Shown here: positions 651 to 17,630 of the stretch, in pieces
Layout of the letters: the number at the start of each line of letters is the position of its first letter
Position numbering within the stretch: the stretch's first letter is position 1
From: Paraspadella gotoi
Lineage: Eukaryota; Animalia; Chaetognatha
Direction of reading: 5' to 3'
Length of the DNA stretch: 17,630 nucleotides
NCBI GenBank assembly: GCA_051294375.1
Contig: JBJCIZ010000020.1
Location: forward strand, 1 to 17,630
Notes under the pieces: generated by a model
Told to the model about the DNA's origin: nothing
What the model saw: only the letters and a program-made list of their open reading frames with translations
The model's database searches: none
Program-made: the position numbers and the translations under genes

Positions 651-1314
651 AGCGCGGGATTTTTGTCGGTAGAAGTCTCGGAAACAAGATAGGGATGTTA
701 GAAAATCATGGATAATGCGAATTTTTATACATTCTATACATAACTAACACTCAGTTCTAATAAATAAAATTTTTCATGGTTTTTATTAATTGATCATATT
801 TCGACATGTGGTATGTAATAAAATATGGGGTGGGCTGAGTCCTGGTCGCCGGCGTTGGTGATGTAGTTTTAATTCCGTAAAAGAGCGTAGTTTCCGATGA
901 TTACAGAGTGTGGTAAATGGCGTGTCCACACTCGTCCTGACAGGAATCCTTATCCCAGTTCCACGTATTTAATTATTATTAAATCTGAAATGAGAACAAG
1001 AACTATTAGAACAAGGGTAATTGCAGTATCTACTTATTACTCAGTATCACTTATTTACACAAAATAATCAATGCATGTCAAAATATGAAGCAGTAAAAAA
1101 GCGCAAATAGAAAATCCACTTGGAAAAGTTGTAGATGAATCCACAAAATGTTGTGAGTTTGTAATCCACTTTAAATTGAGACCCTCTTTGGCACCCCAAG
1201 TCTTGAGTTATTAAGCCTTCAAGTCTTACTAGACTTTAAACCCGGAAATTATTTTAACCCTTAAGTCCTATGGGACTTTTAACCACCTTAGTCTTTAGAG
1301 ACTATTATAATTTG

Positions 1315-1409
1315 GGACTTAGACGTTTTCAGTCTCTCCTGGACTTGAACGTTTTTTATCTTCTCGGACTTAGACGTTTTCAGTCTCTCCTGGACTTGAA
1401 CGTTTTTTA
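1315..1409. repeat. 44-bp direct repeat x2 (period 51) inside the LTR, each with two GGACTT..ACGTTTT sub-units
   Basis: ggacttagacgttttcagtctctcctggacttgaacgtttttta at 1315 and 1366. Counterpart at about 15815-15910. Confidence 0.9.
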
Positions 1410-1587
1410 AGAACCTTTTCCAGCCGGACAGAGTTTCACCTTACACACCAGAGGGTCTCAGCAGACTCTCCCAGAGGTCTGCAGTGCTCCTCCTTATATA
1501 GACACCTTCTGGGTCACATGATCAGCCCTTGGGTCTAGCTCTTGCATTTTGGAGGGCTAAATCAACTATCTTGTTGGTTTTTACTAA

Positions 1588-1835
1588 TGCTTTAGCTATT
1601 CTTTGGCTTTTGCCAGTGCTAACCTAAAAGTTTAGGGTCATTAAAATTATAACTGCTTTTGCTTTTGCTAAAGCTACTTAAATTAGAGAAGCTCATTAAA
1701 GTTCCCTCTGCTTTTGCTTTTGCCTTAGCCAATTCAATTAGATAAGCCTATTATAATTCTGTCTTGCTTTTGCTCTTGCTTTAGCTAAAGTTTAGTCTCA
1801 TTGTTAATTGCTTTTCTTTAGGAAAGCTATTGCTT
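1588..1835. repeat. Degenerate ~55-bp tandem array in U3 (TGCTTTTGC core), enhancer-like
   Basis: tgcttttgc(t/c) cores at 1654, 1709 and 1765, with degenerate copies near 1604 and 1809. Upstream of the TATA box on the minus strand. Counterpart at about 16085-16330. Confidence 0.75.
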
Positions 1836-1916
1836 ATTAGTTAAATTATCAGTTATTCTATGAAACTATAAAATATATAAACTAATAAAAAATTACCCAC
1901 CTCATTTTTTATTACA

Positions 1917-1926
1917 TCCTCCCCGG
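1917..1926 (-). other. Polypurine tract (3' PPT)
   Basis: Minus strand CCGGGGAGGA directly abuts the TGTA start of the 3' LTR. Short, but in the canonical position. Confidence 0.8.
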
Positions 1927-2021
1927 TCTAGCTTTCTGCATGTCCTCATGCACATTTTAACAATTTTAGCTATATTTCACTCTGTCATCATCCATGTTGC
2001 TTTTTTCATTACACAGTGCCT

Positions 2022-3122
2022 TTAAAACCGGATGTCCATTAAGTATTCCTCCAGGGTCGTGGGCAAACCTAACTGATAATACTGATTAATTAGGACCCTT
2101 CCTTGGTTGTTTTTCACTAATTCATGTCTTATGGTCAGCTTAGATAAGTGTTTCAGCGATTTAACCAATCCTACTGGGTTTTCTCTCTCATCATCTCCTG
2201 TCATATACTCCACCATCTTCCTTGCAACAAACTCGTGGTGTGAATGCTTTGCCGCCTGCCAAGTTGATATTTTCTTGGTTGCTGCTGCATTAACATAGGC
2301 GGTATCTTCTAAGTTTCCTCCCGCTCTATACACTCCTTTTATCATCCTTAGATCACCTACATGGGAAGCGTTCCACATTGGGGTTGCCTGGAAAATATTC
2401 TTACTTAGTATTTTTGTTACTGGGATATCCAATATTGCCTCAGTTACTTTACGGTTTCCTTTGTTAACAGCATAATGAAGCACTGTATTTTGATTCTTAT
2501 CCCCTTGATTAATATCAGCTCCCTGTTTCGTTGCCAATTGTATTACTTCAATGATAAATTCATCATCCAGATTATTAATACATAAATTCATCAGAAATGT
2601 ACGCCCTGTATAAGCATCCTGTTCTTCAGTTGGCACTCCCTTCCCTAGCAATATCTCATATAATCGTAAATATGCAATTTCTGAGTTAGATGCCAGTATA
2701 TGTAAGAGAGTTTCACCATGTGTATTCTTTACTTTATAGTCATCCTCACCCATTCTGCTGCTAATTAGTTCTATAATTACTCTTGCTTTTGCATCATATT
2801 TTTTTCTTAATATTTTTGCCAAAGATATATTTCCCGAGTAATCAGTTTTCATTACATTTCCTCCTCGTACAAGCATCTGTTCCACAATATTTATTCTTTT
2901 CCTAGTCACGGCTATGTGCAATGGCGTTTGGCCATCATGGAACCTTATTTCATTAGGGTCGAACCCTTCTTCAAGTAACCTTTTAGTTACTCTTTCTCTT
3001 CCATATTCCGCTGCCATATGTAAGGCACCATTCATTTTTTCTCGTAATGCGAGCTCAATTGCTTCGTCATCTCTGCCGCCCAGGAATTTAACGTATAGTC
3101 CATAATTTGTTAGCGGAAACAT
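2022..3122 (-). CDS. Ankyrin-repeat protein with C-terminal SOCS box (ASB-like)
   Basis: Ankyrin motifs GALHMAA, GQTPLHIAV, GETLLHILA, GRTFLMNLC, NTVLHYAV, ATPMWNAS. The C-terminus SLKHLSKLTIRHEL...LGLPTTLEEYL fits a SOCS/BC box. First ATG is at 3122; the track start at 3158 is a TTG. Confidence 0.88.
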   Translation of the reverse strand: MFPLTNYGLYVKFLGGRDDEAIELALREKMNGALHMAAEYGRERVTKRLLEEGFDPNEIRFHDGQTPLHIAVTRKRINIVEQMLVRGGNVMKTDYSGNISLAKILRKKYDAKARVIIELISSRMGEDDYKVKNTHGETLLHILASNSEIAYLRLYEILLGKGVPTEEQDAYTGRTFLMNLCINNLDDEFIIEVIQLATKQGADINQGDKNQNTVLHYAVNKGNRKVTEAILDIPVTKILSKNIFQATPMWNASHVGDLRMIKGVYRAGGNLEDTAYVNAAATKKISTWQAAKHSHHEFVARKMVEYMTGDDERENPVGLVKSLKHLSKLTIRHELVKNNQGRVLINQYYQLGLPTTLEEYLMDIRF

Positions 3123-3284
3123 ATTTACTACACCTAAGAATAAAGAAATGCATGCCAAATCATTTATTTAGAACAACATATTTGTAGAACTTGTTCTACA
3201 TTCCCCCCCCCCGGACAAAACCTCGAACCATAAAACAAAACAAAAATTTTTATCACTTAATCATTTAATTTCCACTATTTTAAT

Positions 3285-4886
3285 TTACAGATCAAGTTTT
3301 TTCGGCTCTTTCAGTGATTTCCTATTTCTCAATCGTTTATTCCAACTTAATTCTTGGTCATTCTTCTCCTTAATCACTAACTCCTCCGTCTCTTTGTTAA
3401 CTTCCTCCTTGCAGTTGTCTGTATCGGAAGACGCCGGCCATTGGTGTCTCCCGTCTTCATCAGCGGACTCAGTCGACGTATCTGAGAAATCCGATTGATC
3501 CTCCATAATTATACCACCCTTTTGACATTCCCTTGGTTTTAATTCCCTAACCACTGCCTTCTTCAACTTCCTAGCATTCACTATCCTTTCAAAACCTGTC
3601 TCGTTATTTTTAATTACATATGTGGTTGGGGAAATGACCTTAATTACCGTATGATTAATCTCATAAGATTTAAATAGCTTTCCCGGTTGTAAAGGAGGTT
3701 TGAACCCCACCAACTCACCCACTACATAAGTCGGGACATTCGCTTTCTCTTTAGATTTCTCCCTTCTTAACTCCTGTCCCTCCTCATACCTTAAATTTAA
3801 CATTTCCATAACTTTTCTTCTTGCCCGTAATCGTTCTTCCAATTCATCCAAGATTTTTCTTTCTTTCCAACCGTGACTTTCTTTCCTGGTTAGAATAAGA
3901 TCTATTGGTTCAATAAGATTTCTCCCGTAAACAATAAAATTTGGCGATACCCCTGTTGCTGTATTTATACTACTATTATAGGCGCTGAATAAAAGGTTAA
4001 GCTGTTTTGGCCATTCTGAGATGTAACCATCCAGCATAACTGTCAAAATGTTGGAAATATTTCTGTTTACTTGTTCAATTAACCCATTAGCTGCAGGATT
4101 ATAAGATGCCGTTAGACATATATCAATTTGAAGACTCTCATAGATCGTTTTAAGTATTTTACCCGTGAACGTCCTTGCTCTGTCTGAGATAATGGCCCTC
4201 GGAACACCAAATCTTGGGATCCACGAAGAAATGATAACTTCTGCAACAACCGATGCTTCCATCGTGGGCGTAGGATACGCCATTACAAATCTCGATGCAT
4301 GATCTATAATCACCAGCACAAACCGGTTTTTAGATTGATATAGTATAGATCTGTCACTAACTGGTAAGGGGCCTTTAAAATCGTAAGATATGCATCCACC
4401 AATGTCATAACTATCCACACTGATAGGCTGGATCTCCGCCATTGGTTTATTTTTTGGACTTTTTCTACGTACACATAACGGACAAGTATTTATAAAGTCA
4501 GAAAGTCTAACAACCATTCTAGGAAAATAAAAACTTTTTACTAGCTTAAAATATGATTTACTTATTCCATAATGAGCGGATAAGGGACTACCGTGAGTAT
4601 GATATAAAATTTCGCTCACCTTAGACTCTGGTACAACAACGGCTTTGTCACCACCCGAAGTTTTTCTTAGCAGAACACCATCGTTGTCAATTTCTAAAGA
4701 CCGATAGACAGACTTGTACCCTTTGATAACCTCGTTCTTGAAATCGGGCTTTTGCCCCTCTAAAATGGCTTTCTTTACTAGTTTAATGCCTTCATCCTGG
4801 TTTTGAGCATACGCGAGTTCATTTTTTCGTGGTATGTTGGTTTCAAAAAGGTTGACAACATTATCATTCAATTGTAGTTCCATCAT
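3285..4886 (-). CDS. Stand-alone retroviral-type DDE integrase
   Basis: HHCC zinc domain (HGSPLSAH...CPLC). Catalytic D (SYDFKGP), D (ISDRA) and E (NGLIE) with 35 residues between the second D and E. Degenerate GPY/F-like segment (GKLFKSYEINHTVIKV) and acidic/basic tail. Confidence 0.95.
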   Translation of the reverse strand: MMELQLNDNVVNLFETNIPRKNELAYAQNQDEGIKLVKKAILEGQKPDFKNEVIKGYKSVYRSLEIDNDGVLLRKTSGGDKAVVVPESKVSEILYHTHGSPLSAHYGISKSYFKLVKSFYFPRMVVRLSDFINTCPLCVRRKSPKNKPMAEIQPISVDSYDIGGCISYDFKGPLPVSDRSILYQSKNRFVLVIIDHASRFVMAYPTPTMEASVVAEVIISSWIPRFGVPRAIISDRARTFTGKILKTIYESLQIDICLTASYNPAANGLIEQVNRNISNILTVMLDGYISEWPKQLNLLFSAYNSSINTATGVSPNFIVYGRNLIEPIDLILTRKESHGWKERKILDELEERLRARRKVMEMLNLRYEEGQELRREKSKEKANVPTYVVGELVGFKPPLQPGKLFKSYEINHTVIKVISPTTYVIKNNETGFERIVNARKLKKAVVRELKPRECQKGGIIMEDQSDFSDTSTESADEDGRHQWPASSDTDNCKEEVNKETEELVIKEKNDQELSWNKRLRNRKSLKEPKKLDL

Positions 4887-5032
4887 TTAAGGCTTAACTG
4901 GAACAGAAAGCGAACGATTAAACTATTTTAAACAGTGCAGTTGAATTACGGAATGAACTAATTAATATATTTATTTTTCCGTTTACTAATGTTAAGCACG
5001 TCATATGTACAGTCCCATTGGTACGGATAAAA

Positions 5033-6328
5033 TTAGTCAAATAATTCACCACCTTCAACAAAGTCAATGAACTGCCTTGTGTGTGTGCAAGGACATTCAA
5101 TTGCATCGTCATGGCAGTGGAAGCACTTTCCGCACCTTTTGATACCACAACATAATACCTTACATCCCGGATCCAAGTGTCTTACCTCCAAGCAGAAACA
5201 GTTGCTGCATGCCATTTTGGCATTATAAAAACGTACTAAGCTTGAGGGAAATCTCTCCTTTTCCCTTAACACCAAACATTCCTTAATCCATGGCCTCACG
5301 AATTTAGATATATTAACCTTGCACTTTTGGCTCATACGTATTTCTTTTAGTTTTTTCATATAAAATTTAACCCCACTTTCAATTTTCCTTCCAGTTTCCT
5401 CTTCCTTTTTCCCATCCTCTTTTTTGTCATCTTTCATGCTTTCTTTTTCATTCCCTTCTATATCCCTTTTGATACTTTTACTACGGTCATTTTCAGAAAA
5501 GCCTCTATTCTGATAACCAATCGTCCTGTATTCCCCCCTATTAGTATCAGTATTTTCTATTCCCCTAATTTCCTCTTGTGATACAGTAACAACAAGTTCC
5601 TCACCCCATTCCGATTCTTTATCACTATCATAGTCCTCACCCCCTTGACGACATAATCCCTGAACTTTATCCAGTTTATTCTGTACCATAGCTATTATTT
5701 CATTTTTATATTTATATATATCTTTGCTCTTCTCATACAACTCTTCCTGTATTATATCAACCTTTCCTTTCTCAATTTTCACCTTCTTCCACTCGGCTTC
5801 TAGTTTTTCCCGTTCTTTTATAAAAGTTGAGAGATCTACGTGCTCATAAAATGATTTTAAGAGTGGTTTCGTACGGGAAATCTCTTTAGGTAATGAAGCA
5901 GTATCATTGGGCCCCGGCGGAACTTGTTCAAATTCGCGCATTTCCCTCACTACATCATTAAGTACTCCTTTGGTTTTTAATATATACGTCAGGGTCTCGA
6001 TTTCTATCATATGTACTTTATCCAAACCAATATCTTTCTTTAAATATACCATAGCCCTCTCCTTTTCGACATTATTAAAACGTAATTTCGGATCTAGTTC
6101 CGTGACTAATTTTCTTAGCTCTCGGGAGTTATTAATTTCTTCTTGGAGTTGTTTATATAGTCTCCCGTTATCATCTTTTTCACACTCCAGTTGGATTTGA
6201 AGGATACGATAATCACTCTTGAGTCGCTCAATAGCTTTCTTACTTCTAGTTTCCGTCTCCCTTATCTTCTCCAGACAAGCGTCCAAATCGTTGGTCTCCA
6301 TTTTATATGATTCAATATTCTTTTCCAT
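5033..6328 (-). CDS. Hypothetical protein: coiled-coil N-terminus, charged linker, Cys/His-rich C-terminal domain
   Basis: 431 aa intact ORF in AT-rich DNA. E/K/L-rich heptad-like N-terminus. C-terminal CSNCFC...H...C...CC...CGKCFHCH...CPCTH. Confidence 0.8.
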   Translation of the reverse strand: MEKNIESYKMETNDLDACLEKIRETETRSKKAIERLKSDYRILQIQLECEKDDNGRLYKQLQEEINNSRELRKLVTELDPKLRFNNVEKERAMVYLKKDIGLDKVHMIEIETLTYILKTKGVLNDVVREMREFEQVPPGPNDTASLPKEISRTKPLLKSFYEHVDLSTFIKEREKLEAEWKKVKIEKGKVDIIQEELYEKSKDIYKYKNEIIAMVQNKLDKVQGLCRQGGEDYDSDKESEWGEELVVTVSQEEIRGIENTDTNRGEYRTIGYQNRGFSENDRSKSIKRDIEGNEKESMKDDKKEDGKKEEETGRKIESGVKFYMKKLKEIRMSQKCKVNISKFVRPWIKECLVLREKERFPSSLVRFYNAKMACSNCFCLEVRHLDPGCKVLCCGIKRCGKCFHCHDDAIECPCTHTRQFIDFVEGGELFD

Positions 6329-6506
6329 TCATCTGCTTAAATCAAGTTCACAAAAAATCAATAACATTATGGGAATAATTGAACGTGAGTAAATTAAAAT
6401 TAACTGACCGGACTTGATTGACCGTAATATAAGTAGAACAGAACTGCATCATTTAAGATTTTTATTAGTTCTGTATACCATACAATAAATATTTACAAAC
6501 AAAAGA

Positions 6507-7091
6507 TTAATTACTGTCGTCTTTATCTTCAGGCCCTATGTATGACAATACATTGTTCATTGATGACGTTAATTCTTCATGCATCATTACGTGAACTATC
6601 ATACGGTTTTTATTATTTCTAACCTTCTGACAATTAAAACACTGATATACTACAGGGTGAACCCTTTCCATATGCCTGTCTATATAAGTTCTATTAGGCA
6701 ATGGTTTATCACAAATATTACAACTAAAATTATGACGTTTTATGCGCCTTTTTAAACTTTTTGTCTTACTAAACCTTTTCTCGCATTCCAAGCACTGGTC
6801 CGTCTTATTTTCCGCCAACAGTCCGTAACGTTTCAAGCGCGGGGCTCTACCGAATCTCAACTTCTCGCTTTGCGACGTCATACTTCCTTCGTCCGTGATC
6901 ATGTGCGTTGACTCCGCACTTTCGACACCACCCATGAGCCTCATTCGGTTCTCGTTCGTCTAATCATTCTTACGTGGACGATCATCTTCCACGCTGGCGC
7001 GGGTTGGACTTAGCGCTTCGACGTCCGCTCTCATTGTCCGTTTCCTTGTATCAGGATTGATTAACCATATTTTGCTCTGGGGCATGGCCAT
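6507..7091 (-). pseudogene. Second three-finger C2H2 zinc-finger gene (ZnF-B), interrupted by an in-frame TAG
   Basis: The frame of track ORF 6507-6944 extends upstream to ATG 7091 (MAMPQSKIWLINPD...) through a single TAG at 6960-6962. Fingers CLEC...RIKRH (first His replaced by Arg), CNIC...HMERVH and CFNC...HVMMH. Confidence 0.72.
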
Positions 7092-7408
7092 TATTTCTGA
7101 CAAACACGTAATCTGTCAGTTAATTGTAAAAAAAAAGACGGTCAGTGAATCCGAATGGGTTAAAAGAATATAATAAAAGTGAATGGCAAAACACACGGCA
7201 AAACACTCATGGAATAATAGCCAATAATAAAAAAAAGAAAGACCGCGTTGGCCGTTTAATAACATTGTTACTCCTAAAACAAGAATAGCAAAGATGTAAA
7301 AAGGGTGGCTTGGCCATGGAAATATAGGAACAAGATCATTGACATTTCTGTCAACATACAGAATTAATGAAAATTGTGTCCAACAGAACGTAAAGAATCA
7401 CGTTTAGA

Positions 7409-7609
7409 TTAAAAAACTAAAAACTCCCGTTGAGTCACGAATCTTTCAGAACCAAAATATAATTGATTAAAATAATATATCAAAGCCACCAGCATTGGTG
7501 AACGAATTAAAAAAGAGGTAGTATGTTGAAATAAAAAATAAAAAACGATCACTTTGATCCACCCCATACTCTTCAGCATCTGTAAAACTAGGATCAATTC
7601 GTCATTCAT
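7409..7609 (-). CDS. Candidate small hydrophobic protein (66 aa)
   Basis: ATG overlaps the ZnF-A stop (ATGAATGA). Two hydrophobic stretches, though T-richness alone could produce these. Confidence 0.3.
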   Translation of the reverse strand: MNDELILVLQMLKSMGWIKVIVFYFLFQHTTSFLIRSPMLVALIYYFNQLYFGSERFVTQREFLVF

Positions 7610-8321
7610 GAATTTTCACTTTCGCGGCAATTTTGCGCGCCTCTTGGGAAAATTCCCGATGCAGTATCACATGGAGCGTAACTGAACTGCCCTCCCGAAA
7701 TTGCTTTCCACACACCAAGCATTCGTATTGTTTCGGGTGATACGCTTTATTGTGCAGTTCATACATCAACCGGTTCTTTATTTTTCTTTCACAATGTGTA
7801 CAAGTGTAAGAGTGGCATTTTAAGTGTCCGTTCCTTGCGTGAGGCGTCGAGAAAGTTTCTTGACACTGCTGACAATCATAGACAGTGGCGCCTTCGTTTT
7901 CTTCACCGCTTGCATCATCAGGCTTCTCAGTCTTTGTGTTGGCATTCACCGCGTAGGTTCCCACGTTTTCAATCCGCTGCCTTTTGTGCGGGGGAATCTC
8001 GCTGATTACAATGACGTCCGCCTCTCCCTTGACGACCGTTTCGTCTTCCCAAGCCTCTTCTTTTAGTGGTTCGCCGAGCTGCTTTTCGGGCGGAATGTGT
8101 AGATTCTTCAGACTCTCAGCTGGGCTCCCGAGTTTCTCCGTGTCCTTAGCTTCCTCATTCGCCGCTGCTGGATCATTGGCTCTGTTCCAACACATCCACG
8201 GATCTGTTCTAGAGGACATGGGCGCTTGCTCCAGTTCTCCGAGGATTCCGTCCGCATCTATGTTGCCCGTCAAGGATGCGTAGGTCGCCAGCGAGTGATG
8301 CCGATCTGCGACGCGTTCCAT
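7602..8321 (-). CDS. Three-finger C2H2 zinc-finger protein (ZnF-A) with acidic/disordered N-terminus
   Basis: Fingers CQQC...HLKCH, CTHC...HNKAYH and CLVC...HVILH. Start codon in GCCATGG Kozak context. Confidence 0.88.
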   Translation of the reverse strand: MERVADRHHSLATYASLTGNIDADGILGELEQAPMSSRTDPWMCWNRANDPAAANEEAKDTEKLGSPAESLKNLHIPPEKQLGEPLKEEAWEDETVVKGEADVIVISEIPPHKRQRIENVGTYAVNANTKTEKPDDASGEENEGATVYDCQQCQETFSTPHARNGHLKCHSYTCTHCERKIKNRLMYELHNKAYHPKQYECLVCGKQFREGSSVTLHVILHREFSQEARKIAAKVKIHE

Positions 8322-8421
8322 GGCGTATTGATCATATCCGCCACCCGTAGGGGCGCTATCGAGCTGTTGAATTTATTTATACGCCCTTATTATCAACGCC
8401 AAAAACACTGCCCCCAACCCG

Positions 8422-8645
8422 TTTATTCCTTTATTGATTTATTCATCTATTTATTTATTTCTTCATTTATTCGTTCATCTATTTATTTATTCATTTAATT
8501 TATTCATTTATTTACTTATTTCTTAAATACTACTCTTCTATTCAATCCATTCTATTATTTATCTATTTTAAACTGCCTCTAAATAACTAACTCCTCTCAC
8601 TCATAACTATTATTAAACTAATTACTAATTATTTATTTATTCTGA
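8422..8645. repeat. Low-complexity (TTTA/TTCA)n tract
   Basis: Repeated tttattta/ttcattta units upstream of ZnF-A. Confidence 0.8.
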
Positions 8646-9318
8646 ACTAAACTACACCATGCTTAATTATACTTCATGCTTTAACTACTCAGATTTTCCT
8701 ATCCCAAACCTTCAACCCAGACACTAACCAACGCTGTTGGGATCATCAGGTTTATCTCTTCCGACGGGTCATAATCATCAGGCGTGTACAACGGGTCCTC
8801 CGGCGACGTTTCGTTGAGTATCGGTTCCATCTTTTCGTCACAACGGGATAATTGGTTACACCACGAATCTCCGGTACCGTTAGAGCAGAACAATTCGTTC
8901 AGTCGCGGAGACGTTTTGAAGAAACACTAAGACGTTTCAGTTTATAATACGAGTTCCTTGGTTGTTTAAATCGCACAATTAAGTTTCACCCAAGCTCGGC
9001 GGCTTGCGATAATTATAATATTCCCAACCTGTTCAAAGAATGAGCAAAACCGACTTCATCTTTCGTTGTTTCAATTTACAAAGTAATCATCAATTTTTAA
9101 CCCTTTTTTCTTTTCACGCAACTTTTACAGAAATTTTACGACAGCGGTTAGTGTTTAGACTAAGTTCACACAAAAACTAAACTCGTCTTTGAACGGAACG
9201 TACTAACAGAGCCACATGATAATTCATTATTACCGTAATAATAGACATCGCGCGTCTATGTTTCTATGAACAGAACTTTGGACGGAACATAATAACTAAA
9301 AAATTACAACTATAGTTA

Positions 9319-10107
9319 TTACCGAAACAATAAGGCTTGTGCGTTTAACAGTTTCAGGGGGGTCTTGTACCATTCTACTTCAACTACATTTACTCGAATG
9401 CCGAAAAATACGGAGGGGATGTACCTATTTGTACTCAGACGATTAAACCATCCTAAATTAGGTATGTTCTGAGGCAAAATACTAATAGATTCACGATGAT
9501 CAATAAAAATTTTATCACTACGGACATGCAAGTCCATTCCAAAATGTAAAATACTAGCTAAATTTTCTACTTGTTTCATACTTAATCTTCCATTATAAAT
9601 TAAGTACTTACCAACATTGGAATGTTGTATGTTCTGCGCTAGAGAGTATAACAACCAATACTCTTGGAAGTCTGACATAATTAATCCTTTACCGAATTGT
9701 AAGACTTCTGCAAATACACAACCACACGAACTAACTTTTCCTGTGAGCTCAATAGAGGCAAATTGATATTTTCCGTTATCTGTAGCTTCTTTAAACCATC
9801 TCACTAATCGTAATATGTCTTCCACCTCATTCATCTCTGTTAAACGTCTAGAAATAATAATATGTACATGCTGATAAGCAGCGCTTTCAAATGCCGCCTG
9901 TATCGGCCAGAGTTCCTCTGTTTCGCACAGTGTGAGGATTAATGTTTTTCTAGGGAGGACGTTGAACAGTGTAGAGCTCTCTACTTGGATTTCCAAGACG
10001 CTTTCGAAGATCATTGACGCTTCGGCCGCCGCCATCTTGTCTCGAGTCGGGAGATACGCCATAATATCTCGTTTCACGTCCGCCGGTAATTCTCCGATTG
10101 TAGTCAT
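9319..10107 (-). CDS. F-box domain protein
   Basis: The N-terminus IGELPADVKRDIMAYLPTRDKMAAAEASMIF follows the F-box pattern (LP..v...I..YL...D). The remaining ~220 aa were not recognised. Confidence 0.75.
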   Translation of the reverse strand: MTTIGELPADVKRDIMAYLPTRDKMAAAEASMIFESVLEIQVESSTLFNVLPRKTLILTLCETEELWPIQAAFESAAYQHVHIIISRRLTEMNEVEDILRLVRWFKEATDNGKYQFASIELTGKVSSCGCVFAEVLQFGKGLIMSDFQEYWLLYSLAQNIQHSNVGKYLIYNGRLSMKQVENLASILHFGMDLHVRSDKIFIDHRESISILPQNIPNLGWFNRLSTNRYIPSVFFGIRVNVVEVEWYKTPLKLLNAQALLFR

Positions 10108-10208
10108 CTGAGGAGGAATTAAAATTTTCTATCAATATACGTCTATTACAATTATAACCGTTACTAATTAATTATAGGGGCAAGGTTAACCGTACACTCT
10201 TGTCATCA

Positions 10209-10442
10209 CTAAAAACCGAATAAGTAAGTTTGACAGAAAATTTCATAGGCAGCGGCACCTATACCTGGCGATAATATAATATACGTACGAATTACGTAAC
10301 AAAACCTCCAGCCTTTTGAGGTTTTCATTGTAAAATTAAACCAGACGATCGGGATTTTCCAAGGACCACAAGGATTTTTCACTGAGAAAAGCCGGTGTCT
10401 TAGTCTGGACCGTCTAAGGATGACCACCCTTCCCTTTTTCAT
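10209..10442 (-). CDS. Candidate small basic protein (77 aa)
   Basis: ATG start with a CAG 9 nt upstream. Arg/Lys-rich N-terminus MKKGRVVILRRSRLRHR. Same strand as all element genes. Confidence 0.4.
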   Translation of the reverse strand: MKKGRVVILRRSRLRHRLFSVKNPCGPWKIPIVWFNFTMKTSKGWRFCYVIRTYIILSPGIGAAAYEIFCQTYLFGF

Positions 10443-10682
10443 TTTAGTTGGCTGGCCGGGCCGGATATAAAATTTTCCCTTAGGTCACCTTATAAACCCA
10501 TGACCAATAGCCGCGGTTTTCTAACGACCACAAGTGCGCACCACCCTGCGTCCACTTCACCCTCGTCTCTCTATAATTCAATATTGAATTACAACCATTA
10601 AAATAAACACAATAGTAGGTTAATCGCCGTCACTAAATTATCCCAGGCTTGGCACCACCCCTGCCATTTAATGCTTTCCTTA

Positions 10683-13631
10683 CTACAGTTCCTCTACATC
10701 TTTAGAAGCAAGAATCCGAAAACTACCCTCTTTTCCTCCTTGCTTCCTTTTCCAGACAAATCTAACCAATCCCACTCCGATATTTCCTTCCAACTCCGTT
10801 TCCTTTTGCATTTTTTTCAGTGATCGTCTAAGTTGTACTTCTTTACCCTCCCCATAATTAACTTCTACTACTTCATTATTTATTATTAACTCCTGATTTT
10901 CGTCAAAATCTTCCTTAGTGGGTTTTTCCACTTTAAACCATGATCTTAAGATAGGGCTACCATAATCAGTATAAAGCCTCAAAATGGGCTTTTCCATTTT
11001 AACCGCCATTCTTTCCTCCTCGTTGGCTTCAAATCCATACGGAACTCTACTCAGAATGTCAGCTACAATCATTTCCCTACTGTCCCCAGGTTTATGGTGA
11101 ACCTCAAAGTTAAATTGAGATAGAAAATTTAACCATCTGCTAATCTTTTGAGAGGAGTCTCTCATAGTAGAAACATATCTTAAACTACTATGGTCTGAGA
11201 AGACAATAAAGGGGGATGTTAAGTAATGTCTATATTTTTTAACCCAATGGGCAATAGCAAAACACTCTTTCTCCGTTGTACTCCACGAAACTTCGGCTGC
11301 CTTCAGCGTGCGCGATCCATAAGCTAATAAACTTAATTCTCCGTCAGGTTTTAATTGCGACAGAGTAGCGCCGATCCCTTTTCCTGATGCATCGGTAGTT
11401 AATATCATGGGGAAATTAGGATCATAATAATTTCGTATAGGGGCACTTATTAATTTTTGTTTTAAGGTATCCATGGCAACTTGACACTCATCCGTCCATC
11501 TAAATGGAACACCTTTTCTTGTTAGATTAATAATGGGAGCTAAAATCTGACTATGAGATTTAATAAAAGTCCTATAATAATTACAAATCCCAAGGAACCT
11601 TTGGACGCCTTTAACATTTTTAGGTATAGGAAACTCAGTAATTGCGTCAACTATATGTTTACACGTTTTTATGCCTTTATCAGAAATTACAAAACCTAAA
11701 AATTCTACCGACGATTGAAATAATTTACATTTTACCGCTCTTAATTTCATACCTCCCTCTTTTAATTTTTTAAGTACCCGGATTAATCTCTCATGTGCCT
11801 CTTCTAAAGTTTCCCCAAAAATTATCACGTCGTCTATGTAAACGACAGCCTCCTTCCAACACAACTCTCCTAGAACTTCCTCCATTAATGCTTGATAACT
11901 TGTTGGCCCCGAATTTAAGCCAAACGGAAGTCTTTTAAACTCAAATAGCCCTTTCCTAGTAGAAAAGGCCGTTATTGGCCGCGATTCCTCCTCCAAGGGG
12001 CATTGATGATACCCCTGGAAAAGATCTAACGTGTGAAACCATTTCTGGCCACGAAATTGATCTAACAGTTGTTCTATATTAGGCAACGGATGGGCTAATG
12101 GAGCAACGCACAATGAATTAACTGCTCGGTAATCAATGCACAGTCGCCACCGGTTCTTCCGTTCCTCCCAAGATAAAACTATTCTGGAGTTCCAATTACT
12201 ATTGGAGGGCTGTACTATATCTTGTTTTATCAGTTTCTGGACTTCCTTATCTATAAAGGCATTCTGTTCTTCACTAAATTTACGATTTTTCTGCTTTACA
12301 GGATTAGTATTAGGTTTAAGGATTATTTTATGTCTAGTCTTAGTAGTATGGCCTACTGGTCGATCCTCCCACTGAAAGACTTCTTTATGCTCATCTAATA
12401 TTTTTCTTACTTTAGCTTTTTCCTCATCACTAAGCTCTGATTTTTCTAGCCCAAAATTTACCTCATCTAGTCTTTTACTATCAAAATCCTCATAGACCAT
12501 AGTATCTTCTACACACTCGTCACTCTCTAAACACTCAGCGAATTCTTCCTCATAATTTTTCCCATCCCCCACTGTATTTATTAATATAGGCATAGGACGT
12601 GAAAAAGAAAATGTGCCAAAATCCTCACCTTTCACTAAAGCCAACCTACGGGTCCCTTGGTTTATTACTTGAGTAATTACCACTGGCTTAGCTATGGTCA
12701 AAACCCTACTAGCATTAATACCATATTTCCATATATCTTTAAATGGCTGAATAATACCTTCGCCCCCTTCATTTTTTAGGCCCTCAATTTCTACCCTAAT
12801 ATCACAAGCAGATTGTGGTGGCAGAACGACATCCTCTGCTATTCTAACCTTTCTTACACCCCTCTGATCCTTATACATAAAATTTATATGCATTTGCCCC
12901 GCCTTAGGTTGGAAGCAAGTACCATCTGCTAAATTAACATTAAATGAATGACGGCATATCTCATCTAATCCCAATAGACCTTGAATTTCTAATCCCCTTA
13001 TAACATAAAATTTAATAGTAGCTGAATAATTACGTTTAAAACCATAAAATATAACAGGTAATTTTACGTATCCTATGCACTCGATCTTTGTCCCATTAAC
13101 TGCCTCAAACTGTGAACCATGAGGGTGTAAAATATACCTCTTATCTGAATTAATCATATCATACATTTCTTCTGATAATAAAGTTTTCACGCTACCAGTA
13201 TCAAAGCCCAACCTAGTTTCTATACCCCTTACTCCTACAGTAATATACGTGTAAGTAGGGAGAGACTGGAAATCGTCATAAACTTCTTCTTCTACTATTT
13301 CCAGATCCTTATCAATCTGCGGGCTTTCTTCCTCAACCCACCCAAAAATTTCCTCGGCCCCAGTGATTTTTTCAATTTCTACATTTGAAATTTTTTCCTC
13401 ATGGGACTTATTTTCTTTCTTACTTAACTCTTCATTAACTACTCTTACTTTGGGGCTCTCCTTTACTTCTAAACTTTGTTCCCCGTTTATTTTTGGGATT
13501 ATATTTTTCTCAGTTTGATTGTTTAAATTAAACCGGACCTTTTTCTTTACATCCGTTACCCCTTTTATTTCGCTTTCTAGTTTATTTTTTATCCCAGGCT
13601 GCCCCCCTCGCGGGGGGCTATTTAGTTTAAA
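10683..13631 (-). CDS. pol: Pol: aspartic protease, reverse transcriptase and RNase H, with no integrase; expressed as Gag-Pol by frameshift
   Basis: Frame is stop-free from 13643 to 10683; the track start at 13211 is an internal TTG. Protease: ITVGVRGIETRLGFDTGS. RT: WRLCIDYRAVN, LDLFQGYHQ, LPFGL, YIDD. RNase H: TTDASGKGIGA, TEKECFAI, SDH, ADILSR. Confidence 0.96.
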   Translation of the reverse strand, partial: FKLNSPPRGGQPGIKNKLESEIKGVTDVKKKVRFNLNNQTEKNIIPKINGEQSLEVKESPKVRVVNEELSKKENKSHEEKISNVEIEKITGAEEIFGWVEEESPQIDKDLEIVEEEVYDDFQSLPTYTYITVGVRGIETRLGFDTGSVKTLLSEEMYDMINSDKRYILHPHGSQFEAVNGTKIECIGYVKLPVIFYGFKRNYSATIKFYVIRGLEIQGLLGLDEICRHSFNVNLADGTCFQPKAGQMHINFMYKDQRGVRKVRIAEDVVLPPQSACDIRVEIEGLKNEGGEGIIQPFKDIWKYGINASRVLTIAKPVVITQVINQGTRRLALVKGEDFGTFSFSRPMPILINTVGDGKNYEEEFAECLESDECVEDTMVYEDFDSKRLDEVNFGLEKSELSDEEKAKVRKILDEHKEVFQWEDRPVGHTTKTRHKIILKPNTNPVKQKNRKFSEEQNAFIDKEVQKLIKQDIVQPSNSNWNSRIVLSWEERKNRWRLCIDYRAVNSLCVAPLAHPLPNIEQLLDQFRGQKWFHTLDLFQGYHQCPLEEESRPITAFSTRKGLFEFKRLPFGLNSGPTSYQALMEEVLGELCWKEAVVYIDDVIIFGETLEEAHERLIRVLKKLKEGGMKLRAVKCKLFQSSVEFLGFVISDKGIKTCKHIVDAITEFPIPKNVKGVQRFLGICNYYRTFIKSHSQILAPIINLTRKGVPFRWTDECQVAMDTLKQKLISAPIRNYYDPNFPMILTTDASGKGIGATLSQLKPDGELSLLAYGSRTLKAAEVSWSTTEKECFAIAHWVKKYRHYLTSPFIVFSDHSSLRYVSTMRDSSQKISRWLNFLSQFNFEVHHKPGDSREMIVADILSRVPYGFEANEEERMAVKMEKPILRLYTDYGSPILRSWFKVEKPTKEDFDENQELIINNEVVEVNYGEGKEVQLRRSLKKMQKETELEGNIGVGLVRFVWKRKQGGKEGSFRILASKDVEEL
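13601..13631 (-). promoter_or_regulatory. -1 programmed ribosomal frameshift signal (gag-pol)
   Basis: Minus strand T TTA AAC slippery heptamer (13631-13625) in the gag frame just before the gag TAA. It is followed by a 6-nt spacer and the hairpin GCCCCCC-GCGA-GGGGGGC. The -1 frame is open, by manual translation, through to pol. Confidence 0.92.
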
Positions 13632-14971
13632 GGAACCGTGGCATTAGAATTTACCGGTTGTAACGCTGGGACTTGTGAGGGCAAGCCCGTCTGATTATCC
13701 TGTCCCCTTACGCGGTTTTGAGCCTCCCCCAATTCTGTGTTCGCTGGCAACCTAAAAAGTCCTCTTTCTCTATCCTCCCTTTGTATTTTTATAAGGTAAT
13801 TGTCTGCTAATTGTAGAGGACAGTCCCTTCTCAAATGCCCTTTTCTTTCACAACGATAACATGTCACGTTCCTATCCCTATTCCAGTTACTGTCACTTCG
13901 TCTCCTCATATTTCCATTATTACCATTATTATAATTATTGATATTCCTATTATAATTATTCTCATTACCCCAGTTATTGTTATTGATAGGGTTATTATTT
14001 TTACCTTGATTTTGACCTTCCTCATTCACTTTCCCTATAAAACTATTTTGTGCGATAAGCATTTCATCAGCCTTTTCTATGAGCTGATCTAAAGAGGCTT
14101 CTTGACCCACGGTCGCTTTTAAAATCTTACGGTCGGTCAGTGCAACTGATTCATATACCTTAAATCTCATCATCTCAACTGCAAAAGTTCCGGCCGGATC
14201 CATGCCTGCCCTTCGAATATACATGCGACACCTATCAATAAATGTAGTTATACTTTCCTTCGGGTGTTTTTTAGCAGAAAGAAAATTTTCTTTATTTTTC
14301 TGCTCAGACTGAGGATCCAGCTTCCTTCTTAACGCTTGAATTAAAATCTCAGTGCTTATTTTTTCCCTTTCCGTTAGGGTATCATAAGCCCTTTTTGCGG
14401 CCCCATTCAGGCTAGGTGGTAAGGCCGCTACGAACTTTCTTATATCCCAACCGTTACAAGTAATACATGCCTGTACCTTATCCACCCACTCATCAAATTC
14501 CAATCCCACTCCGTCATACGATGGTAACTTCTGATTATTAATTGCCCGCGAATTTTCTTGAGAAATACGTAACCTTTCAAATTCTGATGCCAACGATTCC
14601 ATATCATCCCTATGATATTTTTGTTGATTAAGAATTAAATCCCTATATGTATCCTTATCCTCCTCCGCTTGCTTTTGAATTATATTTATATTCCGCTGCA
14701 TATTCTCATTTTGACACCTTAATACGTCGGAGATCATTTTACCCATCTCTTTTAACGCTTCGCCGATCTCACCCATTTTCAGTACTTTCCCTTTACTCCC
14801 GTCGGTTTCCTTCAAACCCTGGGAATTCTCAGTTACAAATATTTCTTGAGGGAGTTCTAACTCACTCTCCCCTAACCCGCTAGTATCCAGTGAAACCTTA
14901 AATTTTTTAACCGCACTATTAGTTAATTTAGCTGCCTGCCTTTTCGTTAATCTCGATTTTTTATTTTCCAT
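13622..14971 (-). CDS. gag: Gag (coiled-coil N-terminus, capsid-like region, Asn-rich linker, CCHC zinc knuckle)
   Basis: 449 aa ORF. Zinc knuckle CYRCERKGHLRRDC (CX2CX4HX4C). Capsid-like LPSYDG...FDEWV motif. Located between PBS and pol. Confidence 0.93.
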   Translation of the reverse strand: MENKKSRLTKRQAAKLTNSAVKKFKVSLDTSGLGESELELPQEIFVTENSQGLKETDGSKGKVLKMGEIGEALKEMGKMISDVLRCQNENMQRNINIIQKQAEEDKDTYRDLILNQQKYHRDDMESLASEFERLRISQENSRAINNQKLPSYDGVGLEFDEWVDKVQACITCNGWDIRKFVAALPPSLNGAAKRAYDTLTEREKISTEILIQALRRKLDPQSEQKNKENFLSAKKHPKESITTFIDRCRMYIRRAGMDPAGTFAVEMMRFKVYESVALTDRKILKATVGQEASLDQLIEKADEMLIAQNSFIGKVNEEGQNQGKNNNPINNNNWGNENNYNRNINNYNNGNNGNMRRRSDSNWNRDRNVTCYRCERKGHLRRDCPLQLADNYLIKIQREDRERGLFRLPANTELGEAQNRVRGQDNQTGLPSQVPALQPVNSNATVPLN

Positions 14972-15007
14972 AAAATTTAAACTCTTACGTATTTATATTT
15001 CTTATTC

Positions 15008-15268
15008 TTAAGAGTATGTAACACCACAATTAATATCGAGCGACCCGTCACTCACCCTCGTAACAACAATATTATGTATTAAAACCCGTTCAGGCACTGG
15101 CGAAACTGGCAAAGGATTTAACGCGTTCTGTATTAACCTTCTTATTATCTCAGGGTTGATATTGTGAACTCCTGTCACTCTACCCAAATTATTACGTTGG
15201 TTACTATTACTATTATTATTGTTACCGGAACCTTGCCCACTACTATCACACGGTTGCCTTAAAACCAT
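15008..15268 (-). CDS. Candidate 86-aa upstream ORF between PBS and gag
   Basis: ATG at 15268 (MVLRQPCDSS...), open to 15008, filling most of the leader. No recognisable domain. Confidence 0.4.
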   Translation of the reverse strand: MVLRQPCDSSGQGSGNNNNSNSNQRNNLGRVTGVHNINPEIIRRLIQNALNPLPVSPVPERVLIHNIVVTRVSDGSLDINCGVTYS

Positions 15269-15271
15269 AGG

Positions 15272-15279
15272 ACTCACCG
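15272..15279 (-). promoter_or_regulatory. Candidate major 5' splice donor
   Basis: CG|GTGAGT, with the intron starting at 15277, 9 nt downstream of the PBS match. This is where retroviral major donors lie. Confidence 0.65.
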
Positions 15280-15286
15280 ATTCGAA

Positions 15287-15301
15287 CCACGTTGGGCGCC
15301 A
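15287..15301 (-). other. Primer-binding site complementary to the tRNA-Lys(CUU) 3' end
   Basis: Minus strand reads TGGCGCCCAACGTGG, 2 nt after the 5' LTR end. This matches the first 15 nt of the known Lys1,2-type PBS TGGCGCCCAACGTGGGGC. Confidence 0.93.
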
Positions 15302-15303
15302 GT

Positions 15304-16413
15304 TGTAATAAAAATATGGGGGTGGGCTGAGTCCTGGTTGCCGGCGTTGGTGATGTAGTTTTAATTCCGTAAAAGAGCGTGGTTTCCGACGATTACAGAG
15401 TGTGGTAAATGGCGTGTCCACACTCGTCCTGACAGGAATCCTTATCCAAGTTCCACGTATTTAATTATTATTAAATCTGAAATGAGAACAAGAAATATTA
15501 GAACAAGGGTAATTGCAGTATCTACTTATTACTCAGTATCACTTATTTACACAAAAGAATCAATGTATGTCAAAATATGAAACAGTAAAAAAGCGCAAAA
15601 TAGAAAATCCACTTAGAAAAGTTGTAGATGAATCCACAAAATGTTGTGAGTCTGTAATCCACTTTAAATTGAGACCCTCTTTGGCACCCCAAGTCTTGAG
15701 GTATTAAGCCTTCAAGTCTTACTAGACTTTAAACCCGGAGATTATTTTAACCCTTTTTAGTCCTATGGGACTTTTAACCACCTTAGTCTTTAGAGACTCA
15801 GCTATTATAATTTGGGACTTAGACGTTTTCAGTCTCTCCTGGACTTGAACGTTTTTTATCTTTCTTCGGACTTAGACGTTTTCAGTTCTCTCTCTGACTT
15901 GAACGTTTTTTAAGACCTTTTCCAGCCGGACAGAGTTTCACCTTACACACCAGAGGGTCTCAGCAGACTCTCCCAAGGTCTGCAGTGCTCCTCCTTATAT
16001 AGACACTTCTGGTCACATGATCAGCCCTGGGTCTAGCTCTTGCATTTTGGAGGGCTAAATCAACTATCTTGTTGGTTTTTTACTATGCTTTAGCTATTCT
16101 TTGGCTTTGCCAGTGCTAACCTAAAAGTGTTTAGGTCATTTAATTAAACTTGCTTTGCTTTTGCTAAAGCTACTTAATTAGAGAAGCTCATTAAAGTTCC
16201 CTCTGCTTTTGCTTTTGCCTTAGCCAATTCAATTGATAAGCCTATTATAATTCTGTTCTGCTTTTGCTTCTTGCTTTAGCAAGTTTAGTCTCATTGTTAA
16301 TTGCTTTTCTTTAGGAAGAAAGCTATTGCTTATTAGTTAAATTATCAGTTATTCTATGAAACTATAAAATATATAACTACTAATAAAAAATTACCCACCT
16401 CATTTTTATTACA
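15304..16413 (-). repeat. 5' LTR
   Basis: Starts TGTAATAAAA at 15304 and ends TTTTATTACA at 16413. Near-identical to 814-1916 and directly adjacent to the PBS. Confidence 0.96.
15995..16001 (-). promoter_or_regulatory. LTR TATA box (copy in 3' LTR at 1494-1500)
   Basis: Minus strand CTATATAAGG, with a candidate AGT initiation site about 32 nt downstream (15969). Confidence 0.65.
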
Positions 16414-17630
16414 AATATAAAAATAAGTGGTTTGATATTGACTCGATCGAAAAATACTGATTAATACAAACTTTTAAGAAGAAAGTATGTGAATGATATT
16501 AATTTTATGTACATTACATATAACACTCTTGCATAGTCTGATTAATGTCGTTGCTAAGAAAAATGATTGTTTGACGAATCAGTCCGCACATTCTTAATGC
16601 GGAAGTCACCGATTCAACCGTATCGGTGATTTGATTCTTGTTAAATATTGAGTTGAATCATCACGAATAGGAATGCAATTTAATTCTTACTGTTAAATGG
16701 AATAGACAACTAACAAATTAAACTTATTAATTAATTAATTAACTTTGCATTCCCATTGGATTATTACTTAGCTGTTACTAAAATAAGTTGATCAATCGTT
16801 CTTAAATGTGACCTTTTCCGTAACCTTTTTGACCTTTTTGACTTTGGTCACCAGGAGGTCAGCGCCGCCTGTATTAGATTGTGTTCAGTCTCTCACTATG
16901 GTTACGCGCAATCATAGTATTTTTTTTTCAAATTTCTTTCATCATGTACCAACCTCCATCCTTGTCCATCTTTTCCAAAAAAAAAAACCTATTGAGATTG
17001 ATCAAAAAAATATATATAGTTATTTAATTATTATCATCTCCAATTATCAGTCCCACTTCTATCCACATCATAACTGACATTTTTATTTATTATTCCCGAC
17101 TTTACACATTTTCTTAATTAACATTATGCTAATAACTCAATGATCATTAATATTGGATAAGAAGTACTGATTTCTCAATTATTCCATATTAAAATTTAAA
17201 AAAATTCTTTTCTTTACAAAAAAGAACACAGAACAACATTACACGCGTGCAAGGCCGTCGAAGAGTATATTGAAAAGTCTAACGTGAGGTATGTGCAGCA
17301 TATAACAGGAAAAGCACAAAACAGTTGGAGAAAACAAATGTTTTATATTTTACTCATTTTCCCACCCATTTAAGTATTATATTTTTTTTTTCAAAGAATT
17401 AATTCAATTCCAATATTATCAAACAGTTTCTGTTATCATTTTGAGAATAATTCATTTGTTCTTAAGTTATAATATACTAAAAGTTAGATTTATAGAACAT
17501 CTAGAAGAGGAAAAATAATACCCAAGTTATTAAAGTCCGGTCAGTCAGTCACGTGTACATACTCATTGCATACGTGGTTAGCGTCCATCACCACATTCAC
17601 ACTAAATCTCAGCAGTGCGGTAAAATTTCC

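Follow-up and report, generated by a model that had tools for sequence, protein, structure and literature searches.

An LTR element of the chaetognath Paraspadella gotoi with an integrase gene separate from pol

Described systems and the layout of the element

In LTR retrotransposons and most retroviruses, integrase (IN) is packaged, and its ratio to reverse transcriptase (RT) is fixed, by means of the Gag-Pol fusion. The element described here shares with Ty3/Gypsy elements (Metaviridae), e.g. Ty3, the LTRs, primer-binding site (PBS), polypurine tract (PPT), CCHC-type gag, -1 overlap, HHCC spacing of the gypsy kind and the order gag-protease (PR)-RT-RNase H (RH)-IN. It differs from them in that IN lies outside Pol, 5.8 kb away, in that Pol has a new tail, and in the presence of five accessory genes, one of them with introns. 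Because the feature 'IN within the Pol polyprotein' is not found, the element is filed as a variant derived from Ty3/Gypsy and not as a canonical member.

Four other systems approach this arrangement. In foamy viruses, Pol is made from a spliced RNA and packaged through genomic RNA (PMC7828637, text in part); in this element, too, an enzyme is encoded apart from Gag, with signals that would fit a spliced subgenomic RNA, and a candidate central PPT and accessory genes are present, but foamy viruses separate the whole of Pol including IN, whereas here IN alone has left the fusion with Gag that RT retains. The env genes of Tor elements and errantiviruses likewise lie downstream behind a splice acceptor or an internal promoter (PMC4402516 and PMC13524379, available parts), a position occupied here by integrase. 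Burro and other large Gypsy elements carry ankyrin and ubiquitin-pathway cargo, as does this element, but the Burro type keeps PR-RT-RH-IN in one polyprotein, and its extra ORFs are described as following pol or env instead of separating RH from IN (PMC6431247, partial text). The DNA transposons Ginger1/2 also encode a stand-alone Gypsy-like integrase, but enclose it in terminal inverted repeats (TIRs) of 40-270 bp (PMC2836005, in part), none of which is found here; the YPYY and GPY/F motifs and the C-terminal OTU or Ulp1 domain of Ginger1 are also absent from this gene, which sits inside an LTR pair together with RT. Within the full-text literature covered, which is represented by parts of papers and has most subscription journals and Repbase outside its scope, no account was found of an LTR element whose integrase is encoded by its own gene far from pol.

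The window, i.e. the whole stretch of 17,630 nt that was analysed, contains one complete LTR element of 15.6 kb on the minus strand, from 16413 to 814 (Table 1). Its genes are all on the sense strand, in the order gag, -1 overlap, PR-RT-RNase H, four accessory genes that fill the block between pol and IN, IN, and an ankyrin-SOCS gene. The host is a eukaryote with GT-AG introns, and the named relatives of Pol are mostly from invertebrates. We take the PBS to be of the tRNA-Lys type. The two LTRs differ by 16 substitutions and 41 gap columns; since several of the gaps are contradicted at full depth by contigs of the sequencing runs, this difference is partly an error of the window, which has indel errors in its 5' LTR region and is error-prone at its right end. 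No target-site duplication is present at the ends of the element (the 4- and 5-bp flanks at 809-813 and 16414-16418 differ), possibly because of recombination between copies or an assembly join. The internal PPT, with its near-palindrome, may serve as a central PPT, or it may be what is left of a former 3' end that predates the addition of the ankyrin gene. No tRNA genes were found in the window, and the left flank (2-697) is GC-rich, with overlapping open frames and no Pfam match.

Table 1. Coordinates of the features of the element in the window.
Feature	Position	Strand	Remarks
5' LTR	15304..16413	-	TG...CA; 1,110 nt; TATA-like box at 16001
Primer-binding site	15287..15301	-	from sequence
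Candidate major splice donor	15272..15277	-	just after PBS; predicted
gag	13622..14971	-	449 aa, CCHC knuckle
Predicted -1 frameshift signal	13601..13631	-	slippery heptamer and 7-bp GC hairpin
pol	10683..13643	-	PR-RT-RNase H and 120-aa clade-specific tail, no integrase; from sequence, Pfam and profile
Accessory gene 1	9319..10107	-	N-terminus F-box-like (E 0.15, weaker than the Pfam cut-off); ATG abutted by strong acceptor 10108
Accessory gene 2	7602..9029	-	C2H2 zinc-finger gene with introns; coding sequence in 8830-8729 and 8363-7602; 287 aa
Accessory gene 3	6507..6959	-	C2H2 zinc-finger ORF; start provisional
Accessory gene 4	5033..6328	-	431 aa; coiled-coil-like start, Cys/His-rich end
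Strong 3' splice acceptor	4898..4914	-	ends 11 nt before IN ATG; 12/14 pyrimidines; predicted
Stand-alone integrase gene	3285..4886	-	533 aa
Skipped GT-AG segments in IN ORF	4619-4304, 4162-3886, 3789-3482	-	one contig each, side 28, one data set
Internal polypurine tract and 18-nt TGT...ACA near-palindrome	3183..3212	-	72 nt after IN stop
Accessory gene 5	2022..3122	-	ankyrin repeats and SOCS box; strong acceptor at 3134
Polypurine tract	1917..1931	-	adjoins 3' LTR
3' LTR	814..1916	-	TG...CA; 1,103 nt

The contigs of seven of nine sequencing runs were compared with the window, X3 and X4 being left out. In the DNA-like run X1, which is possibly the source of the window and hence not independent, contigs 1930-8129 and 8181-15338 are joined by two 111-nt alleles; the DNA-like run X2, and X5 from another study, agree with X1, and long contigs bridge the layout. 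No run is recorded as RNA; X6 and X7 (apparently one data set) are taken as such only because of GT-AG joints that X1 and X2 do not show. Summed contig depth in X1 and X2 is several times higher in the LTR (15304-16413) than in the internal region, and higher still in the right flank (16517-17000); possible sources of this excess, which is not a copy number, are solo LTRs and, where the element inserted, a repeat.

The separate genes and their relatives

The initial annotation had described a complete HHCC and D,D(35)E integrase that starts from its own ATG at 4886, and this is borne out by an intact ORF with an in-frame TAA directly before that ATG. The protein comprises a bridge mini-domain, the HHCC and D,D(35)E domains, a beta-rich C-terminal domain, an acidic linker and a basic end motif. 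The residues of the two motifs are H98-H105-C135-C138 and D169-D235-E271, with 35 residues between D235 and E271, and all seven are invariant in 16/16 aligned rows. The best fold matches of the model are the foamy-virus and Ty3 intasomes (pTM 0.33, TM-scores about 0.23). Of 20 INs compared, 12 match the basic end motif, and five of those that do not are fragments or have altered ends; the motif may have a role in nuclear import or at chromatin. The first 95 aa are predicted to fold as helices and three short strands, much as the bridge 'mini domain' of errantiviruses is a helix plus three-strand unit (PMC13524379, in part), and they match a region that starts a median of 31 aa past the RNase H motif in contiguous Pols (63 matches). 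The N-terminus of IN thus corresponds to the region just after RNase H in contiguous Pols, which implies a cut at the natural RH/IN border with nothing lost.

Between the pol stop and the IN ATG lies a gap of 5,796 nt. The Pol ORF had been noted to stop about 120 aa past the ADILSR motif of RNase H; it ends with TAG TAA exactly 120 aa after it. Pol matches Pfam RVT_1 and RT_RNaseH, its nearest matches are contiguous Gypsy-type Pols, and the top fold matches of the RNase H model are the RTs of CaMV and Ty3; RT-RH is only 40-43% identical to that of the nearest contiguous elements. A profile of the Pol tail matched 19 of 296 fetched proteins, every one of them inside the clade of close relatives. 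The model of the tail is of low confidence (pLDDT mostly 45-63), with fold matches that cover residues 15-155 only. A contig joint within pol, between 12642 and 12750, is non-canonical and was set aside.

In the Pol search, which allowed lengths up to 1,724 aa, 7,990 candidates were scored and 639 passed. Among the best 120 of these 639 matches, 11 relatives are 59-69% identical and the next are 33-44% identical; IN domains are absent from all 11, which end 87-147 aa after the RNase H motif. As nine of them share the same EVE(Y/D)L-like end, these ends are taken to be real stops and not contig ends. The IN search was limited to proteins of 293-933 aa, and a 50% cluster could conceal a fused relative; within this range, 16 of the 19 matches are 44-58% identical and none has RT. 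In ten of the 16 the first residue is the matching Met; four are called with extensions and two start later. The extensions end in L-Q-M, L-Q-M, F-Q-M and S-K-M, which fits a yAG/ATG junction (known from protein only). A profile search without length limit yielded, among 150 matches listed of 83,027, two more stand-alone INs, P0155 and P0158 (33% identical), as well as three fragments; the two INs are sister to the IN clade with a support of 1.0, which indicates that the split is old. No close relative with contiguous RH-IN was among the matches listed. Several high-scoring long matches were considered as fused relatives and rejected as concatenated gene models; all seven that were looked up are from Cordylochernes, and their IN identity is 19-33%.

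The conservation of the split, which the initial annotation had proposed to examine, is thus met with in 11/11 close Pols that are free of IN and 16/16 close INs that stand alone; these relatives are loose proteins, with Pol and IN unpaired on any one contig and the spacers unseen. With high confidence the split is real and conserved, and judged from protein sequences the stand-alone integrase is a trait of the clade and not of one copy. No DNA of the relatives was obtained from viral contigs or prokaryote genomes. Metagenome contigs gave five loci at 26-30% identity, and both of those read (L001 and L004) are ordinary contiguous elements. L004 (1-14064) is unrelated to the split clade: it contains tandem contiguous Gypsy-like gag-pol copies with a period of about 7.6 kb, followed by a downstream 375-aa ORF. 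The gag-pol of L004 has an extra C-terminal domain, which to our reading resembles a DNA adenine methyltransferase.

Expression of the integrase gene and its route to the cDNA

The element is a complete Ty3/Gypsy-type element whose separate IN gene, common to its closest relatives, is on balance probably expressed from its own spliced mRNA, with IN joining the particle or the cDNA non-covalently. The splice signals bear on this reading. The internal region contains 372 YAG sites, four of which have 12/14 upstream pyrimidines, and three of these four are placed 0, 11 and 11 nt before the ATGs of the F-box-like, IN and ankyrin genes. The one before IN is the pyrimidine-rich CAG that had been noted 11 nt upstream of its ATG; the CAG ends at 4898. 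When only the 78 non-coding YAG sites are considered, all three with 12/14 pyrimidines are within 15 nt of an ATG (p 1.3e-4, with a threshold picked after seeing the data), and in none of the three spacers does an upstream ATG follow the strong acceptor. Beyond the IN acceptor every reading frame closes within 15 nt, so that a Pol-IN fusion through this acceptor is impossible. The acceptors seen in use are weaker, with 5-9 of 14 pyrimidines, and acceptor strength is therefore not needed for use.

At the other end, the 695 nt from the predicted start to the donor at 15277 contain no ATG (8.1 expected), and the first ATG lies 9 nt beyond the donor. As the remaining gag leader is also ATG-poor (1 vs 5.3 expected), the lack of ATGs would fit a spliced leader without being diagnostic of one. 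Taken together, donor, leader and acceptors have the layout of env-style subgenomic mRNAs. An upstream ORF of about 86 aa (15008-15268) begins 9 nt downstream of the donor-like site and stops 36 nt short of gag; its ATG would be lost on splicing to an acceptor-like site at 15097.

Separate translation of IN, as initially proposed, is supported by the stop before its ATG, by the closed frames after the acceptor and by the stand-alone relatives, and the likely template is a spliced subgenomic mRNA that serves IN alone. Gag-PR-RT-RH would very probably be produced by -1 frameshifting from the genomic RNA, and the IN mRNA would quite probably use the acceptor at 4898. As its 5' partner, the donor at 15277, used in the manner of env behind an LTR leader that lacks ATGs, is the most likely and has about an even chance; an internal promoter would be a rather unlikely source of the 5' end, and a trans-spliced leader a still less likely one. 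A junction at 4897 had been named as the transcript to look for: the acceptor signal itself is there, but the junction is not among the joints listed. No joint at 4897, 10108, 3134 or 15277 is among those listed in the contigs of the seven runs, and contigs cannot show absence. Position 4897 is crossed unbroken by X5 contig 3256-5746, which counts against the env-style reading. A splice from a weak donor at 10683 to 4898, which would give a bicistronic pol-IN RNA, was rejected, as contigs cross 10683 unbroken. In run X6, depth steps are seen near 4950; these were set aside.

The same split could also be served by an internal promoter upstream of 4898, with a short 5' UTR intron or none. As a full account this is unlikely, though local promoters would fit the local 5' UTR intron of the zinc-finger gene (9028-8927, joint 9029/8926), and two contigs, X6 14225-15331 and X8 14639-15333, run through the donor at 15277 without a break. 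Precedent exists in env of Tor3b/4b, which is expressed from an internal promoter (PMC4402516, in part), and in the accessory genes of foamy viruses. Such a promoter, however, would not require the strongest acceptors of the element to stand directly before three ATGs, and no clear TATA box is found in 5032-4887.

These acceptors, 0-11 nt before ATGs and with no partner donor among the contig joints listed, could instead mark a polycistronic block from which spliced-leader trans-splicing at 10108, 4898 and 3134 would release one mRNA per gene. Such a spacing of acceptor and ATG occurs in trans-spliced operons. The presence of a retrovirus-like donor and of an ATG-free leader speaks against this account, which is quite improbable.

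If IN is expressed from its own mRNA, it has to reach the cDNA by other means than Gag-Pol. The initial annotation held that it needs another route into the particle. Entry into the particle is only one option: free Ty1 integrase integrates linear DNA outside particles (PMC2939329, text in part), and IN could meet the cDNA later. Co-packaging, with IN binding to the genomic RNA and/or to the new Pol tail, as in the packaging of foamy-virus Pol, is by analogy slightly favoured; an encounter with the cDNA after reverse transcription would be a little less probable, with somewhat under an even chance. HIV-1 IN binds genomic RNA (PMC9601147, available part).

In X6 and X7, five GT-AG joints are seen (X5 shows one), of which two build the zinc-finger gene and three lie inside IN. 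Removal of the three IN segments deletes the HHCC domain together with D169, E271 and the C-terminal domain, and leaves 95 aa from the IN ATG. Run X8 has an unspliced contig over 3894-4560. These IN-destroying splices, which count against the preferred reading, may represent host silencing, cryptic splicing or a regulatory switch. A wider reading, tentative and unlikely as it stands, is that of an old, undescribed lineage of complex LTR elements in which IN is an env-like, splice-controlled gene, integration is switched apart from RT, and the Pol tail docks IN. If it were true, intron retention would make IN and splicing would destroy it, among captured ubiquitin-ligase adaptors and zinc fingers.

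Descent of the split and the accessory genes

RT and IN trees were built with 69 contiguous elements as background (roots arbitrary, ten near-identical cluster members left out, no named reference set). The 12 split RTs form one clade and the 17 split INs another, both with a support of 1.0 and on long stems. The split RTs group with 10 contiguous elements (0.957); the split INs group with nine of the same 10 (0.54), with all 10 at 0.73, or at 0.60 with deep INs. The correlation of RT and IN distances is 0.37, against a baseline median of 0.68 and range of 0.14-0.91 (18 focal elements). The proposed test of congruence therefore has a divided outcome: RT and IN have the same 10 of 69 neighbours, but the IN support is weak and the distance correlation is below the median. 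Common descent of RT and IN is compatible with these trees, weakly so, and long-branch attraction is possible. An origin of IN in an unrelated clade, which would have told against the split, is not indicated, in that IN groups (with weak support) with the same contiguous elements as RT.

This weakness of the trees, the internal PPT and TGT...ACA motif after IN, and the missing target-site duplication would all fit a chimeric copy in which IN is a nested or captured unit, derived perhaps from a Ginger-like DNA transposon or from a second LTR element that gave its 3' half. The absence of nested-element termini around the intervening block had been noted at the outset, and no LTR-like or TIR-like pair is found inside 1917-11000 (the longest inverted pair has 29 nt at 72%). 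Together with the absence of the Ginger hallmarks, and with two clades, one of Pols lacking IN and one of INs lacking Pol, that match in size, source kind and depth (IN/RT clade-depth ratio, by distance, 1.67 vs 1.86), this makes capture very improbable.

A hidden splice or recoding event that rebuilds a Pol-IN fusion, so that the split exists in DNA only, could draw on the bridge domain that IN retains and that normally follows RNase H, on three weaker YAG sites in IN codons 1-95, and on weak donors near the end of pol. The frames closed after 4898, the start Met kept in 10/16 INs and the Pol end motif kept in 9/11 Pols oppose it, as do contigs that cross the pol end unbroken (X5 8729-12269 and X6 10344-11069), and it is highly improbable. 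The in-frame pol-IN splice that was to be looked for is not among the joints listed in the contigs of the seven runs, which cannot show its absence. An assembly artefact, or a recent insertion of host DNA into an ordinary pol, could appeal to the indel errors in the 5' LTR region of the window, but X1, X2 and X5 agree and the split recurs at 33-69% identity, and it is counted as refuted.

With the preferred reading of an ancestral split, the history would probably have been a break at the natural RH/IN boundary and the gain of a tail by Pol, followed by capture of host-type genes into the gap. A natural, conserved lineage without the Gag-Pol link makes it testable how IN finds the cDNA, and also whether IN is needed in reverse transcription and whether integration can be regulated on its own. 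In annotation, elements of this kind would be wrongly entered as defective copies without IN and as unrelated Ginger-like genes.

Among the accessory genes, the joints of accessory gene 2 are found in X6 and X7, and the one between 8363 and 8729, which is well supported (side 183), also in X5. The element would thereby be an LTR element shown to carry an intron-bearing gene through an RNA stage. The 365-nt intron contains a TTTA-type microsatellite and is kept in the DNA despite the RNA stage. For accessory gene 4, 5,872 candidates yielded no homolog and Pfam gave no match at cut-off, so that sharing across the lineage is shown for the split only. No Pfam env match was obtained for any of the 8/8 ORFs, and no env-like ORF was recognised among them. 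Two candidate ubiquitin-ligase adaptors are present in this one retroelement, the ankyrin-SOCS protein (above cut-off) and the F-box-like protein (below cut-off).
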